Source: Eledone cirrhosa (Eukaryota). Taken from it: 64,000 nucleotides of DNA. The notes under the pieces are model-generated. The model saw nothing but the letters and a program-made list of their open reading frames with translations, did no database searches and had not been told where the DNA came from. Below, piece after piece: positions 1,184 to 64,000 of this stretch. The position numbers and the translations under genes are program-made. Numbering within the stretch: position 1 is the stretch's first letter; each line of letters starts with the position of its first letter. Location: assembly GCA_964016885.1 (NCBI GenBank), contig OZ024753.1:15500001-15564000 (forward strand), in the 5' to 3' direction.

Positions 1184-1690
1184 ATAAATGGAATAGAATG
1201 AAACGAAATTTCATTTCTCACTCTTAGTACGGGACTTACTTAAATGTATGTATGTATGTATGTATACGTACATACATATATGTATACAGACGTACAGTAG
1301 TATGTATATATATACATACATGCACACATATATATATGCACGTATCGGTTTACCGAACATATATTATAATGCTCGGTTTGTTTGTTTGTAAACAAACAAA
1401 CAGCCAGAATTACGCCGTACAGCGTTTAGGCAACCACGTCACATTTTTGTTCAACACTGACACAGGAACGATGTACTAGTTTCAAGCTTATTAGCTATCG
1501 TCAGCATCGTATACCTTCCTGCCAGATGGTTGAACGTCTGAAAGTATATACTTTCCTTATGCATATTAACGGCCGAGCAGCCCAATTTGCACACCGAGTG
1601 AGTTCAGTCGGCCGGGCGCACCGAAAATGATAAATGCAATAGAATGAAACGAAATTTCATTTCTCACTCTTAGTACGGCACTTTACTAAT
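1184..1690 (-). mobile_element. HHR-bearing repeat unit (~446 bp plus a partial second copy), diverged relative of the 468-bp array
   Basis: ATAAATG.AATAGAATGAAACGAAATTTCATTTCTCACTCTTAGTACGG occurs at 1184 and 1630. It shares motifs with the 60.5-64 kb unit (GCAG.C.AATTTGCA...GTGAGT, TGTAAACA.ACA, GAAACGAAATT) and carries an HHR. Confidence 0.7.
1468..1510 (-). ncRNA. Minimal type-I hammerhead ribozyme
   Basis: Minus strand reads ACGATG-CTGACGA-TAGCTAATAAGCTT-GAAA-CTAG-TA^-CATCGT: 6-bp stem I, palindromic ACTAGT stem III, GUA cleavage triplet. Confidence 0.85.
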
Positions 1691-8214: not shown

Positions 8215-11200
8215 AAAAGAAAACCCCGTGACCAAGAAATACCGGGATGGCGGCTGGCGGAAAATAGCCGTGTCTCTCGGGGAGGACGACTCCTCTAGTC
8301 TTGGGTGACACTCGTCCTAGAAGTGGTAACACGAAATGATTACCCCTTGGCGGTTAAGGATAAAACGCGACAAAATAAAGTAAATGTCAAATGATAAAAT
8401 CTCAAACCGGATCGGCCGTCACCCGGGTCAAAAAGTGCCGCGTCCCTCAGAGAGGAACCAGACTGGGGTCGAAAAATCAGCTAATGGTTCAAACCTTCCC
8501 ATCACTTCGGAGCTGGAGACCTCCCATAACTGAAATACTCCTACTGTTAGCCGTCCATGCTCACCACCAAGAAATCCAAAGAAAGAGAGAGAAAAATGGT
8601 CAAGGGAAGACAATAAAGAAGTCCTTGAGGCTTTCTACACTGCCATGTACTGCCCATCAAATACATCGAATACAGAACAGACATATATCAACTGGAAAAA
8701 GAAACATCCCGAAAACAGAGGCTATATTGACAGTAACAAACTAGTCAATATACGAAGAAATATTGTTAAAAAGAAGTTACTAACTGATATAGAAATTGAT
8801 CAGATCAAGCTATTAGCACAAAGTCAGCGAAGGGAAAATGAAACATGTGTCAGTGAAAACGAGACATATTGTAACACTTCGAATCCCAGGGTTGGGGCGG
8901 AATCACTGACAACAAAACAAATTAAAGAAAGGATCGAAAAAGTGGAGGGAGTGCATGCTCAAGATGAAACTCAAAATGGAAACAATGAGATCATAAATGA
9001 TAAAGAAATGAATGAGAATGAACTTGCCAACTTGAAGGATGAAATTATGATCGAATGGATGAAAATGAAAGAATCTGACATGGGGGAATGAGACACTCTC
9101 CCTAAGAACCAGAACTCCAAACAGAACCAAAAGATAATACACAAGACTAACATAATTCTCAAAAACATTATCATCACAAACAAGCTAAACATTACTGATC
9201 TAAATCATCTCTATTATACATCGGCTAAAGTCACCACTCACTTATGTGGAGTGAAAATGAAAAAACAAAGGAATTTCTACAAGAAATCTACTTGGCAAGA
9301 GAACATCAATCGCCAAATAAACCTTCTCCGATCTGATATAGAAATTTTAACAAACTACAAAGTAGGTGAACATGTTAAACAAACTAAAATACAGTATAAA
9401 ATCAACAAGTGACATAGACGTGCTGATAGAGATAATCAAGTGTCGGCCAAAGCTGCTCGTATAAGGCGCTTTGAAAAACGATCTAGATTCTATAAGGACA
9501 ATAATATGTTCAAAAACAACCAAAGAAACTTCTACAGAAAAATTGGCAAGTCAACAATAACTGCTAAATCCAAGGAAGAAGTGCAAGAATTCTGGGAAAA
9601 GATTTGGGCCGAAGAAAAAGTTCATAATATACATGCCCCATGGATAGACAGACAAACGAAAGATACAGCTCACCTTGAGGAACAAACATGGGAAAATATA
9701 ACAGTTGAACAGTTGCGTTTGGCTCTAAGAAAAACCAGCAAATGGAAATCCCCAGGAAAAGACAAAATACCAAAGTTTTGGATAAATGCCTTCACAGAGT
9801 CTCATGAGCTGTTAGCCCAAATTTACAATGAAATAGTTAAGGGGCCAGAAAAGATACCATCATGGCTAGTTAACGGCATTACATTCCTACTTCCGAAGAA
9901 TGATGAAACAAACAATCCCAAAAATTATAGACCGAAAACTTGCTTGACCACAGTGTATAAAATTTTAACATTAGTCCTAACTAAATATGCATATCACCAC
10001 CTGATAACAACTGATATATTTCCCAATGAGCAGAAAGGGTGTAAACGAGGCTCATATGGCTGTAAAGATCAGCTTTTGGTTAACAAATTGATACTGGAAG
10101 ATTGTCATAATAGACACAAAAATCTATCAATTGCTTTGATAGATTATAAAAAAGCATTCGATAGTTTGCCAGACAGTTGGATTGAAAAATGTTTAGAGAT
10201 TTTCAAAATATATCCCGTTGTTAGGAGGTTCTTGTCATTCAGTATGAAGACATGGAAAACGACACTCCTTTTGAATAGTGAAAAAAAAATCACTGGAAGC
10301 TGGAGAAGTTAATATTAATTGTGGAATTTTTCAGGGTGACTCTTTATCACCGCTTTTATTCTGCATCGCACTTATACCATTAAGTAAAATGCTCAATGAA
10401 ACAAAACATGGATATAAAGTCTATGAGAAAACCATTAATCACTTGTTCTACATGGATGACCTGAAACTATTTGCAAAAAATCATGAACAATTGCAAGGGG
10501 TATTATCCACTTTGAAGCAGTTCAGTGATGACATTGAAATGGAGTTTTGACTAGATAAATGCGCCAAAGCAACGTTCACCAGAGGAAAGCTGCTGAAAAG
10601 TTCAGACATTAATCTTGATCGGGGGAATGTGATAAGAGAACTTGATCAAGAGGAAACTTACAAATATCTAGGTGTTTGTGAAGGAGACGGAATCAAGAAC
10701 TCGACAATGAGGGAAAGGATAAGGAAGGAATGTTACCACAGAGTAAGAGCAATTTTAAGAACGGAATTTAATGCAAGGAATAGGATCGATGCCATAAACA
10801 CGCTTGCCATACCAATAGTAACCTACAGTTACAATGTCATCAACTGGTCAAGCACAGAGATCCGTAGGCTCGATACAAAAATTAGAAAATTCTTAACCAT
10901 ATACAGAATGCATCATCCTAAGGCAGATAGAGATAGAATATATCTCCCTAGGAAAGAAGGTGGACGTGGGTTAATCCAGTTAGATATTGCGTCGAAAACT
11001 GCAAAAATTGGATTATCTACATATCTAATGGAATCACATGATTGGATGATCAAACTCGTTTTGAAACACGAAAGCATCAAAAGATCATACTCCATTACAA
11101 AAGATGCACAAAGATAGAGTAATGGACTACAAATTTCAGAAGTTTCATATACTGCTGAAATGGAAAACACAGAAAAAGCAAAGCAGGTAAAAGTAACTGC

Positions 11201-12145
11201 AAAGAAAGAACTGCTACAGAAACTGGCTAAGAAATGGCAAGAAAAGCCTCTGTATGGAAAATACCCAGAAAGAGCTAACAATCCTGATGTTGACAAAACT
11301 TTAACCCATCAGTGGTTGGCATCCTCTGGACTGAAATCGGAGACTGAAGGACTGATTATATCAGCACAAGATCAGTGTCTGTCAACAAAAAATGACCAAG
11401 CCAACATAATAAAAAATGGATGCAACCCATTATGCCGTGTATGTAAAAAGCAACCAAAGACCATTGATCATATAATTTCAATGTGCAGTCCTATAGCTCC
11501 AACCGAATACCTAAACATGCACGACAGAGCTGCACAATACATACATTGGATAATGTGTAAGCATTTTGACCTGCCCCATCAACAGAATTTGTGGGAGCAT
11601 CAACCACCTCCCATACTTGAAAAAGTTCACATCTCAATCTTGTGGAACTTTAGCATCCAAACAGACCGAAAAATAGATGCAAATAGACCTGATTTTAATA
11701 CTGAAGGATTTTAAAAAGAGGGTATGTCTGCTAATTGATATGTCCGTTCCAATAGACGAGAATGTATCTATAAAAACATTTGAAAAATTGAGCAAGTATA
11801 AGGACCACGAGATAGAAATTGGAAAAATGTGGAAATTGAGAACTAAAACAATACCAGTGGTTGTAGGCGCTCTGGGAATGATACCTAAGGGATCTAATGA
11901 TTACTTATCGCAAATCCCAGGAAACCAGCGGTATAGGAGAAATACAAAAGATAGTACTAATGGGAACTGCCCATATACTAAGGAAGATTCTGTCAATATA
12001 AGTACATCACAAGTCTAAACACCTAAAGATGCATGTGTGTGTATGTATGTTCTTTCTTGAACATGGTGGACCTTGTTGTCTCTTTAGGTCACTGGTTGTG
12101 ACTTGGTGATAACTCGTATGAACATAAAGCAAGATAAATGCAACT

Positions 12146-15954: not shown

Positions 15955-17240
15955 TCATCAGTGAAGACGTGGCTTAATGTTTACAGTGTTCAGTTCACCA
16001 CCGAAAGTCGTGAGTTCAATTCCCAGCTGCGGGGTGTGAGTCCTTCTGTATGACACTTTATTTTGGTGAAGGTTTGTGGTTAAGAGCTTACAGTGGTCAG
16101 TTCACCACCGAAGGTCGGGAGTTCAATTCCCAGCTGCGGGATGTGAGACCTTCTGTATGAAACTTTATTTTGGTGAAGGTTTGTGGTTAAGAGCTTACAG
16201 TGTTCATTTCACCACTGAAGGTCGGGAGTTCAGTTCCCAGCTGCGGGATGTGAGTCCTTCTGTATGACACTTTATTTTGGTGAAGGTTTGTGGTTAAGAG
16301 CTTACAGTGTTCATTTCACCACTGAAGGTCGGGAGTTCAGTTCCCAGCTGCGGGGTGTGAGTCCTTCTGTATGACACTTTATTTTGGTGAAGGTTTGTGG
16401 TTAAGAGCTTACAGTGTTCATTTCACCACTGAAGGTCGGGAGTTCAGTTCCCAGCTGCGGGATGTGAGTCCTTCTGTATGACACTTTATTTTGGTGAAGG
16501 TTTGTGGTTAAGAGCTTACAGTGGTCAGTTCACCACTGAAGGTCGGGAGTTCAGTTCCCAGCTGCGGGGTGTGAGTCCTTCTGTATGACACTTTATTTTG
16601 GTGAAGGTTTGTGGTTAAGAGCTTACAGTGTTCATTTCACCACTGAAGGTCGGGAGTTCAGTTCCCAGCTGCGGGGTGTGAGTCCTTCTGTATGAAACTT
16701 TATTTTGGTGAAGGTTTGTGGTTAAGAGCTTACAGTGGTCAGTTCACCACTGAAGGTCGGGAGTTCAGTTCCCAGCTGCGGGGTGTGAGTCCTTCTGTAT
16801 GACACTTTATTTTGGTGAAGGTTTGTGGTTAAGAGCTTACAGTGTTCAGTTCACCACTGAAGGTCGGGAGTTCAGTTCCCAGCTGCGGGGTGTGAGTCCT
16901 TCTGTATGACACTTTATTTTGGTGAAGGTTTGTGGTTAAGAGCTTACAGTGTTCAGTTCACCACTGAAGGTCGGGAGTTCAGTTCCCAGCTGCGGGGTGT
17001 GAGTCCTTCTGTATGACACTTTATTTTGGTGAAGGTTTGTGGTTAAGAGCTTACAGTGGTCAGTTCACCACCGAAAGTCGTGAGTTCAATTCCCAGCTGC
17101 GGGGTGTGAGTCTTTATTTTGGTGAAGGTGTGTGGCTTAGAGCTTAGTGTTCAGTTCACCATTATAAGATCGTGAGATCAATTCCTAGCTGCGGATTGTA
17201 TGCCCTTGAGCAAGACATTTTAATTCACTGAAGGTAGATG
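15955..17240 (+). repeat. 107-bp tandem satellite (~12 units) derived from a tRNA-SINE head
   Basis: TTTTGGTGAAGG recurs at 16061, 16168, 16275 ... 17024. Each unit has A-box-like TGTGGTTAAGAG and B-box-like GGGAGTTCA(A/G)TTCCC. Confidence 0.92.
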
Positions 17241-19549: not shown

Positions 19550-19960
19550 TATTAACAATATTAATAAATGGAAAATATCTTTACAAAATCATATTTATTT
19601 TATATTATACGTATTTCAAGGGTACACATTTTTAAGTACGCTTTCGTCAGATAAAATATAATATTTGGTGTTAAGATAGTGACATATCTTCATGTGAACT
19701 TAATGGTATAAGCGCAGTGAAGATTGGGCTTATATAATTAAGTTCACACCAAACATTATATTTTATTTGACGAAAGCGTTCTTAAATATTAGTACCCTTG
19801 AAATACGTATCATAAAATAAATATGGTTTTGTAAAGATATTTTCCATTTATTAATATTGTTAATATTAATGATACTCCAGAAAATCTTTAGAGTGCTTCT
19901 AATCTGTTGTAAAATTAACTTTGTTGAATAATCAACAAACCATATAACTCATTGTTTATA
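19550..19960. mobile_element. Fold-back element (family B) with HHR motifs on both arms: ~19598-19658 (-) and 19759-19819 (+)
   Basis: Inverted arms of ~150 bp; cores CTGACGA and TTGACGA, then GAAA-TACGTA-TH-ATAAAATA. Confidence 0.8.
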
Positions 19961-60500: not shown

Positions 60501-60507
<7 letters not shown>

Positions 60508-63500
60508 CAAATAACGAAACGAAATTAAATTTCGTTTCGTTTGTAACTCACTTTTGTATGACTGACGCTTAAACAATTAAGTTAAAGATGTACATCCATA
60601 TATGTATACTGAAATACTAGTATGTATATGAATACACACACGTATACATATGTAGATGTACCAAGTTTTTTTCACTGGTCACTTTACTGTGAGTGGCCAG
60701 CTATTCCGTATGTAAACACACAGACAAACCGGTTTTTAGAGTCATACTGGTTTTTGAGGAAACACCTTTCCTCTATTCTCCAGAAAGCCAGACAAGGAAT
60801 ATTGAACTAGTTTCGTTGTTGTTACAACTCATCAGCAATATTTACCTATCTTCCGGCCTCTCTAGAGAATCGTAAAAGCACATAGCGTTATATGCTTTTT
60901 CTATGAAAATTAGTAGTGGGCAGACTAATTTGCATAGAGTGTGAGTAAGTACCGGTTCAACGGAGACGATAAAAACAAATAACGAAACGAAATTAAATTT
61001 CGTTTCGTTTGTAACTCACTTTTGTATGACTGACGCTTAAACAATTAAGTTAAAGATGTACATCCATATATGTATACTGAAATACTAGTATGTATATGAA
61101 TACACACACGTATACATATGTAGATGTACCAAGTTTTTTTCACTGGTCACTTTACTGTGAGTGGCCAGCTATTCCGTATGTAAACACACAGACAAACCGG
61201 TTTTTAGAGTCATACTGGTTTTTGAGGAAACACCTTTCCTCTATTCTCCAGAAAGCCAGACAAGGAATATTGAACTAGTTTCGTTGTTGTTACAACTCAT
61301 CAGCAATATTTACCTATCTTCCGGCCTCTCTAGAGAATCGTAAAAGCACATAGCGTTATATGCTTTTTCTATGAAAATTAGTAGTGGGCAGACTAATTTG
61401 CATAGAGTGTGAGTAAGTACCGGTTCAACGGAGACGATAAAAACAAATAACGAAACGAAATTAAATTTCGTTTCGTTTGTAACTCACTTTTGTATGACTG
61501 ACGCTTAAACAATTAAGTTAAAGATGTACATCCATATATGTATACTGAAATACTAGTATGTATATGAATACACACACGTATACATATGTAGATGTACCAA
61601 GTTTTTTTCACTGGTCACTTTACTGTGAGTGGCCAGCTATTCCGTATGTAAACACACAGACAAACCGGTTTTTAGAGTCATACTGGTTTTTGAGGAAACA
61701 CCTTTCCTCTATTCTCCAGAAAGCCAGACAAGGAATATTGAACTAGTTTCGTTGTTGTTACAACTCATCAGCAATATTTACCTATCTTCCGGCCTCTCTA
61801 GAGAATCGTAAAAGCACATAGCGTTATATGCTTTTTCTATGAAAATTAGTAGTGGGCAGACTAATTTGCATAGAGTGTGAGTAAGTACCGGTTCAACGGA
61901 GACGATAAAAACAAATAACGAAACGAAATTAAATTTCGTTTCGTTTGTAACTCACTTTTGTATGACTGACGCTTAAACAATTAAGTTAAAGATGTACATC
62001 CATATATGTATACTGAAATACTAGTATGTATATGAATACACACACGTATACATATGTAGATGTACCAAGTTTTTTTCACTGGTCACTTTACTGTGAGTGG
62101 CCAGCTATTCCGTATGTAAACACACAGACAAACCGGTTTTTAGAGTCATACTGGTTTTTGAGGAAACACCTTTCCTCTATTCTCCAGAAAGCCAGACAAG
62201 GAATATTGAACTAGTTTCGTTGTTGTTACAACTCATCAGCAATATTTACCTATCTTCCGGCCTCTCTAGAGAATCGTAAAAGCACATAGCGTTATATGCT
62301 TTTTCTATGAAAATTAGTAGTGGGCAGACTAATTTGCATAGAGTGTGAGTAAGTACCGGTTCAACGGAGACGATAAAAACAAATAACGAAACGAAATTAA
62401 ATTTCGTTTCGTTTGTAACTCACTTTTGTATGACTGACGCTTAAACAATTAAGTTAAAGATGTACATCCATATATGTATACTGAAATACTAGTATGTATA
62501 TGAATACACACACGTATACATATGTAGATGTACCAAGTTTTTTTCACTGGTCACTTTACTGTGAGTGGCCAGCTATTCCGTATGTAAACACACAGACAAA
62601 CCGGTTTTTAGAGTCATACTGGTTTTTGAGGAAACACCTTTCCTCTATTCTCCAGAAAGCCAGACAAGGAATATTGAACTAGTTTCGTTGTTGTTACAAC
62701 TCATCAGCAATATTTACCTATCTTCCGGCCTCTCTAGAGAATCGTAAAAGCACATAGCGTTATATGCTTTTTCTATGAAAATTAGTAGTGGGCAGACTAA
62801 TTTGCATAGAGTGTGAGTAAGTACCGGTTCAACGGAGACGATAAAAACAAATAACGAAACGAAATTAAATTTCGTTTCGTTTGTAACTCACTTTTGTATG
62901 ACTGACGCTTAAACAATTAAGTTAAAGATGTACATCCATATATGTATACTGAAATACTAGTATGTATATGAATACACACACGTATACATATGTAGATGTA
63001 CCAAGTTTTTTTCACTGGTCACTTTACTGTGAGTGGCCAGCTATTCCGTATGTAAACACACAGACAAACCGGTTTTTAGAGTCATACTGGTTTTTGAGGA
63101 AACACCTTTCCTCTATTCTCCAGAAAGCCAGACAAGGAATATTGAACTAGTTTCGTTGTTGTTACAACTCATCAGCAATATTTACCTATCTTCCGGCCTC
63201 TCTAGAGAATCGTAAAAGCACATAGCGTTATATGCTTTTTCTATGAAAATTAGTAGTGGGCAGACTAATTTGCATAGAGTGTGAGTAAGTACCGGTTCAA
63301 CGGAGACGATAAAAACAAATAACGAAACGAAATTAAATTTCGTTTCGTTTGTAACTCACTTTTGTATGACTGACGCTTAAACAATTAAGTTAAAGATGTA
63401 CATCCATATATGTATACTGAAATACTAGTATGTATATGAATACACACACGTATACATATGTAGATGTACCAAGTTTTTTTCACTGGTCACTTTACTGTGA

Positions 63501-64000
63501 GTGGCCAGCTATTCCGTATGTAAACACACAGACAAACCGGTTTTTAGAGTCATACTGGTTTTTGAGGAAACACCTTTCCTCTATTCTCCAGAAAGCCAGA
63601 CAAGGAATATTGAACTAGTTTCGTTGTTGTTACAACTCATCAGCAATATTTACCTATCTTCCGGCCTCTCTAGAGAATCGTAAAAGCACATAGCGTTATA
63701 TGCTTTTTCTATGAAAATTAGTAGTGGGCAGACTAATTTGCATAGAGTGTGAGTAAGTACCGGTTCAACGGAGACGATAAAAACAAATAACGAAACGAAA
63801 TTAAATTTCGTTTCGTTTGTAACTCACTTTTGTATGACTGACGCTTAAACAATTAAGTTAAAGATGTACATCCATATATGTATACTGAAATACTAGTATG
63901 TATATGAATACACACACGTATACATATGTAGATGTACCAAGTTTTTTTCACTGGTCACTTTACTGTGAGTGGCCAGCTATTCCGTATGTAAACACACAGA
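60501..64000 (-). repeat. 468-bp tandem array (~7.5 apparently identical units, runs off the window), retrozyme-like
   Basis: Units start at 60501, 60969, 61437 and so on; the ORF track repeats with period 468; one HHR per complete unit. Confidence 0.97.
60798..60842 (-). ncRNA. Type-I minimal hammerhead ribozyme (repeated at 61266, 61734, 62202, 62670, 63138, 63606)
   Basis: Minus strand reads AATATTG-CTGATGA-GTTGT-AACA-ACAAC-GAAA-CTAG-TT^-CAATATT: perfect core, 7-bp stem I, 5-bp stem II, palindromic ACTAGT stem III. Confidence 0.92.

Follow-up and report, generated by a model that had tools for sequence, protein, structure and literature searches.

Using the tandem array that begins at position 60501 of the 64,000-nucleotide stretch of Eledone cirrhosa DNA analyzed here (the window), we identified a large family of short non-coding elements that are almost certainly non-LTR retrozymes, and that were very likely mobilized by machinery of the Penelope type. 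Both ideas had been put forward in a first-pass annotation of this stretch, and both stand: the retrozyme identity is borne out in sequence by a covarying type I hammerhead, dispersed young arrays and a strongly folded circle model, and Penelope mobilization is supported, at the level of the machinery, by a direct signature made up of start sites fixed at two positions, arms in inverted orientation and targets of (TA)n. The best explanation, which we consider probable rather than secure, is that a non-autonomous non-LTR retrozyme is moved in trans by the protein of a Penelope-like element (PLE), chiefly by way of a monomer circle. Retrozymes are known, and PLEs were earlier proposed as their mobilizers on the basis of co-occurrence and pLTR similarity, with the mechanism left open in the available text of those sources; what is new is a retrozyme family that itself bears the PLE integration signature, with two start sites mapped.

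The 468-bp array and its hammerhead ribozyme

The array has a period of 468 bp and runs from 60501 to the end of the window (60501..64000, minus strand) with 100% matches over 7.5 copies, in agreement with the at least 7.5 identical units reported at first pass: seven complete units and a 224-bp partial unit show zero mismatches to the first, and the periodicity begins exactly at 60501. The reference unit (60501..60968, minus strand) has 35% G+C and, as had been stated, no real open reading frame, its longest ATG-started frame being 62 aa; the cleavage-to-cleavage monomer, delimited by predicted cut sites, runs from 61272 down to 60805 (minus strand). The 4-kb (TA)n sequence said to adjoin the array is delimited by our repeat analysis as a degenerate tract at 56366..60503, and it is the insertion target. 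Beyond the window the array continues, completing an arm of 14.15 units of which the window holds the first 7.5, and is followed by an arm of 22.95 units in the opposite orientation; the whole insertion comprises 37.1 units and 17.4 kb, in two head-to-head inverted arms within the (TA)n tract. The RNA sense is the minus strand in the left arm, and the RNA-sense 3′ ends of both arms face outward, toward (TA)n. The insertion starts at unit position 1 and ends at unit position 70, with (TA)n on both sides, and the degenerate (TA)n pattern of the left flank resumes past the far arm in the same orientation. Both flanks being (TA)n, no target-site duplication is readable; those of retrozymes, when present, are expected to exceed 4 bp. 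The junction between the arms carries a short duplication of about 17 bp, and only two single-unit differences occur among the 37 units. Judged by its sequence, the window element is a very young insertion, and part of a young family. The unit had been called large for such elements, which is the case relative to the 150-450 bp of PMC7229834, which it just exceeds, and not relative to the 51-972 bp of bioRxiv 10.64898/2026.07.22.740005, within which it falls (available text of both). The term satellite, used in the same annotation, describes a tandem array that is real, and understates an element whose dispersed insertions number at least 1,869.

Seven minus-strand hammerhead cores, the number noticed at first pass, are present at 60805-60835 and then every 468 bp up to a last core at 63613-63643, against any match to the core pattern in 0 of 100 shuffles. 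The first type I hammerhead (60790..60850, minus strand) consists of stem I (60842-60836 with 60804-60798) and the core (60835-60805), with a 4-bp stem II and a palindromic stem III of 6 nt, and is predicted to be cut after GUU, between plus-strand positions 60805 and 60804. Its stem I of about 6 bp, stem II of 4 bp, core residues, short palindromic stem III and NUH site are, in sequence, those of a canonical type I hammerhead. Comparison with Rfam, which had been proposed as a check with the Hammerhead_1 model, returned a hammerhead as best match (Hammerhead_HH9, with E = 8.6e-7 and 37.7 bits, which falls short of the gathering threshold of 52); Hammerhead_1 itself is not among the matches listed, which omit seven overlapping matches of the same clan. 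Matches to microRNA and pestivirus models, far under their cut-offs, are hairpin or TA-repeat noise. Among 12 aligned copies, with 94% of cells paired, 7 of 15 hammerhead pairs changed on both sides; this covariation lies in stems I and II, and its shuffle control is inflated by the relatedness of the sequences. Across families the cleavage-site triplets are GUU, GUC and GUA. GUU is a weaker hammerhead cleavage site than GUC, and insertion lengths were alike for the two (22 versus 20 loci, P = 0.80). The 6-nt palindrome of stem III is predicted to fold poorly in a monomer and to pair between copies at -4.8 kcal/mol. With a short stem III, cleavage is possible in multimers and monomer circles are protected (available text of PMC4209133), and 8 of 9 Xenopus retrozyme dimers remained without cleavage in vitro (bioRxiv 10.64898/2026.07.22.740005, available text), a point against a mechanism that includes a cleavage step.

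Modeled as a circle, the unit has a predicted folding energy of -150.6 kcal/mol (z = -11.7) and is 66% paired, with pairing probabilities of 0.65-0.94 in ribozyme stem I and 0.98-0.99 in stem II. Circle models greatly exceed shuffled sequences in predicted stability in all four families folded (z = -9.4 to -11.6), with the sense strand more stable than the antisense in each, and the consensus fold of the whole unit shows two-sided changes in 26 of 89 pairs, mostly between the two lineages described below. The hammerhead covariation, the two-sided changes of the consensus fold and the stability of these models in 4 of 4 families show selection on RNA structure of the minus strand. A 13-bp hairpin (60513..60541, minus strand) lies within the tail (see below) and, read in RNA sense, immediately 5′ to the "long" start site. 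A perfect octamer motif (60928..60935, minus strand) sits within a conserved stem and within a 12-nt block common to all six unit clusters, and is present in 113 of 121 monomers, in both lineages; the invariance of the 12-nt run has a P of 0.056 by column shuffling, the six clusters really amounting to two lineages. The octamer may act as a promoter element or as part of an RNA stem. Newt satellite 2 reportedly has an snRNA-type promoter with an octamer and a proximal element. The octamer was absent from the 280 nt upstream of one U1 and one U2 gene, and no significant match to those regions was found, leaving an snRNA-type promoter unsupported by them. Tandem clusters of U2, U1 and U6 genes are located at C3:307.35-307.45 Mb, C2:180.97-181.00 Mb and C19:31.78-31.84 Mb, respectively, and the U1 and U2 upstream regions have a common short block near -55.

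A dispersed family of two-armed insertions in (TA)n

Our search of the 3.0-Gb genome (1,796 contigs) identified 6,113 copies of the exact ribozyme of the window subfamily and 1,869 occurrences of the exact end at which (TA)n meets unit position 1, i.e., at least 1,869 insertion ends, and the dispersed arrays that the first-pass annotation suggested looking for were found in this way. A wider ribozyme pattern gave 40,079 matches, compared with 3 for the reversed control pattern, adding some 40,000 ribozyme copies from one genome. Monomers from the sampled loci (n = 121) form six clusters in two lineages that are about 62-63% identical. The family shows the features by which retrozymes are recognized, i.e., at least two consecutive ribozyme-bearing units, no coding sequence, G+C below 50%, dispersal in many copies and signs of retrotransposition.

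The window also holds a copy of the sister retrozyme family, with 1.1 units at 1187..1690 (minus strand), about 63% identity, a unit of about 445 bp and a GUA core at 1474-1504, and with a (TA)n tract (230-1186) that adjoins the sister units at 1187. Elsewhere (L125, L129-L132), sister-lineage units measure 484-538 bp, lengthened by (TA)n that has expanded within the long hairpin of the unit. An arm of about 31 units at G000:C1:5738326-5752444 represents a subfamily in which stem II of the ribozyme shows a compensatory swap; the arm carries periodic internal variants. At a TA-flanked locus (L044:4393-6906), about three sister-family units pass into the window family at the common tail-hairpin sequence, and both outer ends of this chimera are of the short type; it may stem either from a template switch between two RNAs or from a later adjacent insertion joined by microhomology.

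Insertion structure was analyzed in two samples: 29 best-hit loci, biased to long young arrays, and a positional sample from contig C1, comprising the first 50 position-1 ends out of 1,869 (12 of these loci were extended and L162 was not, and L161 and L162 resemble one duplicated locus). An inverted second arm is present in 36 of the 49 positional-sample insertions with a closed first arm, and several of the 13 scored as one-armed look like stubs or deletions. Two arms were likewise found in 21 of the 29 best-hit loci; of these 21, 19 read as one long and one short end, L041 has two long ends and L044 is the chimera described above. The "long" start site, unit position 1 (60501..60503, minus strand), is joined to (TA)n through an AT overlap and is the putative start of reverse transcription. 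The "short" start site, unit positions 70-75 (60570..60575, minus strand), forms the far end of the window insertion, and the outer end falls at 70 or 75, with (TA)n beyond it, in 29 of the 31 second arms that are closed; the optional "tail" (60501-60570) lies between the two sites. The near end was selected for (TA)n in the positional sample, and the best-hit loci, unselected for it, are also TA-flanked. Outer ends of the sister family fall at its own positions 1 and 55. Exact short-end matches number 93, which is not comparable with the 1,869 long ends since the short end is ragged and subfamily-dependent. In the positional sample, 48 of 80 arms are longer than one unit and 63 of 80 longer than 310 nt, old and short insertions included, and the longest arms reach 23-27 units.

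Both arms start at fixed sites, and the arm-arm junctions are scattered, with mild excesses at unit positions 284-315 (11 of 82) and 1-70 (21 of 82) that were picked after looking. In L1 twin priming, two target-primed cDNAs give an inverted insertion, the second primer lying at a variable internal site near the stop of the first cDNA. The retrozyme insertions would resemble these in having two target-primed cDNAs, and differ in having a fixed second start together with junctions at scattered positions. Fold-back self-priming (available text of PMC3846280) was rejected, as mirror symmetry at the junction is absent from most arms. Insertion by PLE-type integration is a conclusion that we hold with high confidence. 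According to the available text of the respective papers, a PLE protein cuts and extends both target strands in vitro, with two internal RNA start sites that bound a tail (PMC11167929), and an inverted, 5′-truncated partner copy is a PLE feature (PMC8557442); by analogy, the retrozyme insertions are the products that would be expected of this two-strand reaction.

Hydra-type PLEs are abundant in this genome, with 58,864 candidates at first look and many outward-facing inverted pairs (window 48417-50031, L053-L088). The window contains an example of the candidate mobilizer class, a 5′-truncated Hydra-type PLE (48417..50031, plus strand) with the linker and GIY-YIG region, a 3′ UTR and a "long" end in (TA)n. 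Among 30 Hydra-type copies we observed the long end in 20, the short end in 9 and another end in 1, the two sites lying about 130 nt apart, and L070/L071 form an inverted long/short pair. A candidate helper (L084:1516-3918) has an open 801-aa frame, and an inverted short end and a long end that both lie in (TA)n; its RWK, DKT and CxCX5C motifs, C-terminal endonuclease and (TA)n target fit a Hydra-clade PLE, the motifs having been assigned by eye against the description available in PMC8557442. A layout of inverted arms with two ends in (TA)n is common to protein-coding Hydra-type PLEs and retrozyme insertions. Pfam scans of the local PLE proteins returned no useful match, one of the queries having probably been read in the wrong frame. 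Our ribozyme core pattern search found none in L084 or L085; half a core is present in a related PLE family. Fragments of several more distant PLE families were also seen among the sampled loci. The unit, which has no RT or GIY-YIG frame, is not an autonomous PLE, and no PLE terminal sequence resembling it, nor any autonomous partner recognizable by sequence homology, was found among the 30 PLE loci or in 548 kb of masked non-retrozyme sequence; since none of these sequences links it to a specific PLE, the helper is named by class only.

The inverted 5′-truncated partner, the optional tail and the (TA)n targets are features in common with EN+ PLEs of the Hydra clade (PMC8557442) and with Poseidon PAc (PMC11167929), whereas the absence of an ORF and the construction of the arms as concatemers of up to 27 units are not, as far as the available text of these papers extends. 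The tail measures 69-74 nt here and 30-40 nt in those two sources, and the local Hydra-type family has one of about 130 nt. MRC1 and other non-autonomous Chlamys elements (PMC8557442) are similarly non-coding, PLE-mobilized and found as multicopy head-to-tail insertions; they differ in being green algal and in a 3′ end that resembles an autonomous partner, and most Chlamys elements are described in the available text as being without canonical hammerheads.

The template and competing explanations

In the mechanism we propose, paired hammerheads would cleave minus-strand multimeric transcripts into monomers of 468 nt, and these would be closed by a host ligase; a (TA)n-targeting PLE protein would cut both target strands and prime two cDNAs on one and the same RNA, the first at unit position 1 and the second at 70-75; each reverse transcriptase would travel round the circle between less than once and more than twenty times, the truncated ends of the two cDNAs would be joined head to head, and some arms would later lengthen by local duplication. 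Double-primed rolling-circle reverse transcription of a monomer circle is probably the process involved. On the stronger statement, that every insertion preserves in DNA, as a clone, a single circular RNA molecule round which two cDNAs rolled up to 20 or more times, we are evenly divided; if true, these insertions would be a genomic footprint of animal circRNA rolling-circle retrotransposition, with the enzyme class named and the start sites mapped to the base. Long palindromic, satellite-like arrays could, on the proposed mechanism, be produced by one event.

A cleaved linear monomer is not the template, because the arms run on past the cleavage site: of 85 passes, 5 end within 15 nt of it on either side (background 3.6% per 31 nt), first arms cross it once in 40 of 49 cases, twice in 17 and three times in 7, and 3 of 82 junctions lie within 3 nt of it (P = 0.13). 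The median divergence between arms at 30 loci is 0.64% within insertions versus 5.8% between them, and age accounts for part of this difference. Six of 20 young two-armed loci have a private allele that is present throughout both arms, in all of up to 18 units, and that was seen fixed at no other locus, and two further alleles are common to small sets of loci. Fixing a new allele across a two-armed, multi-unit insertion would need a one-unit bottleneck and re-amplification, and a monomer circle would give both in one step. We consider it probable that a monomer circle is the usual template. The rolling-circle copying proposed at first pass is favored rather than established by the read-through and the arm haplotypes, with a linear multimer as the alternative.

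According to that alternative, which we regard as rather unlikely, the same element and the same PLE machinery are at work, with an uncleaved linear multimer of an existing uniform array as template and the ribozyme idle during copying. It also accounts for the read-through at the cleavage site and for the haplotypes common to both arms, and the window subfamily's GUU site, weaker than GUC, and its stem III, too short for monomer folding, also speak for it. In one PLE studied in vitro, cleavage was unneeded and unprocessed RNA was the main substrate (available text of PMC11167929). On the other hand, parent arrays would have to be uniform already to produce the private alleles of the 6 young loci, which moves the one-unit bottleneck and re-amplification to an earlier step; arm lengths would shrink with each generation, yet 23-27 units are reached; and none of the loci examined combines both of the common haplotypes (positions 207 and 385). 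If the linear template were heterogeneous, units of equal rank in the two arms should resemble each other more closely. Our in-register analysis of 44 loci (3 without a full unit, leaving 41, with enough comparisons in 34) gave 62 mismatches against 66.7 expected (P = 0.82, 34 loci), so that an overall in-register excess is absent, in a test that is weak if source arrays are as uniform as the window array.

Internal variants are mostly star-like (95 singletons), and 15 are repeated within one arm, which demonstrates that DNA-level duplication also occurs. Among variants present in both arms, four are in register, at 3 of 41 loci (L167 with two sites, L158 and L040), and one is off register; those in register point to a multimeric template or to conversion between arms, and the former is how the linear multimer would explain them. 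Templates were, on this evidence, mostly uniform, a few may have been multimers or may have been converted later, and some arms lengthened subsequently. Variants at positions 196/197 were alignment artefacts that disappeared on self-alignment, and a pooled in-register rate was discarded as confounded by locus size. The youth of the family, together with its integration signature, makes the question of circle versus linear multimer directly testable.

It is improbable that short PLE-type insertions were expanded later at the DNA level, by unequal exchange, slippage or circular DNA, in the manner of an ordinary satellite whose uniformity is due to concerted evolution. Periodic repeated variants in long arms (the C3 locus, L136 and L038) show that local duplication takes place, and this route is the one proposed in the available text of bioRxiv 10.64898/2026.07.22.740005; against it stand the arm lengths of the positional sample, in which old short insertions are included, the combination of fixed starts, scattered ends and uniformity across the inversion, and the two single-unit differences of the window insertion. 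An assembly artefact or a chance motif is hardly credible, for while perfect unit identity beside 4 kb of (TA)n and the difficulty of assembling palindromic repeats would favor the former, locus-specific haplotypes occur on many contigs, contigs of sequencing run X1, possibly the source sample itself, contain the tandem joint along with loose (TA)n ends at unit positions 1 and 70, and the ribozyme covaries across families. Words of the unit occur in 20 of the 24 sequencing runs listed, under 16 coded organisms and a wastewater sample, at a depth that is very high when summed in X1 and about 5-30 in X4 and X6 (90 in one short stretch), with 0 reads in the 1% of X21 that was read; horizontal spread was rejected as their cause, trace contamination being the simpler reading.

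Relation to known retrozymes and other features of the window

Like the metazoan non-LTR retrozymes of PMC7229834 (coral, mussel, axolotl and newt satellite 2), the Eledone family consists of non-coding units in tandem, each with a single canonical type I hammerhead; it also has their low G+C, a stem III that is short and palindromic, a predicted circle with extensive pairing, copies by the thousand and PLEs in the same genome. It differs from them in a slightly longer unit and in its two inverted arms and two fixed ends in (TA)n, a flank in which no target duplication is readable; the available text of that paper describes head-to-tail repeats, and the word "inverted" is absent from it. Expression and circles were shown for those retrozymes; the Eledone family is described here at the level of sequence. 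A PLE origin of retrozymes has already been argued in a July 2026 preprint (bioRxiv 10.64898/2026.07.22.740005), and the family is like the vertebrate retrozymes treated there as PLE derivatives in its PLE link and in a unit size within their range. The link consists of co-occurrence and pLTR homology in vertebrates, and of the integration signature here, where pLTR homology was not found in the PLE loci examined; in the available text of the preprint, "tail" is absent and "inverted" occurs once, in a reference title. No report of two-armed inverted retrozyme insertions or of mapped start sites was found in the literature searched, outside which subscription papers lie.

Several other repeats are present in the window. 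Minimal hammerhead-like motifs occur at 19650, 20167/20280, 30684/30852, 40610 and 43607/44343, with several head-to-head pairs among them, and are probably the ends of other short PLE-type elements. A broken RT-bearing non-LTR retrotransposon in several frames lies at 8534-11714 (plus strand), and a LINE with an open 1076-aa endonuclease-RT frame, apparently intact and followed by (TA)n, lies at 51837-55067 (plus strand). A 107-bp tandem repeat of SINE-like sequence spans 15981-17112 (10.6 copies, 97% matches). Just left of the (TA)n tract, a long near-perfect inverted repeat (56226-56370) is perhaps a small two-armed insertion of another family.
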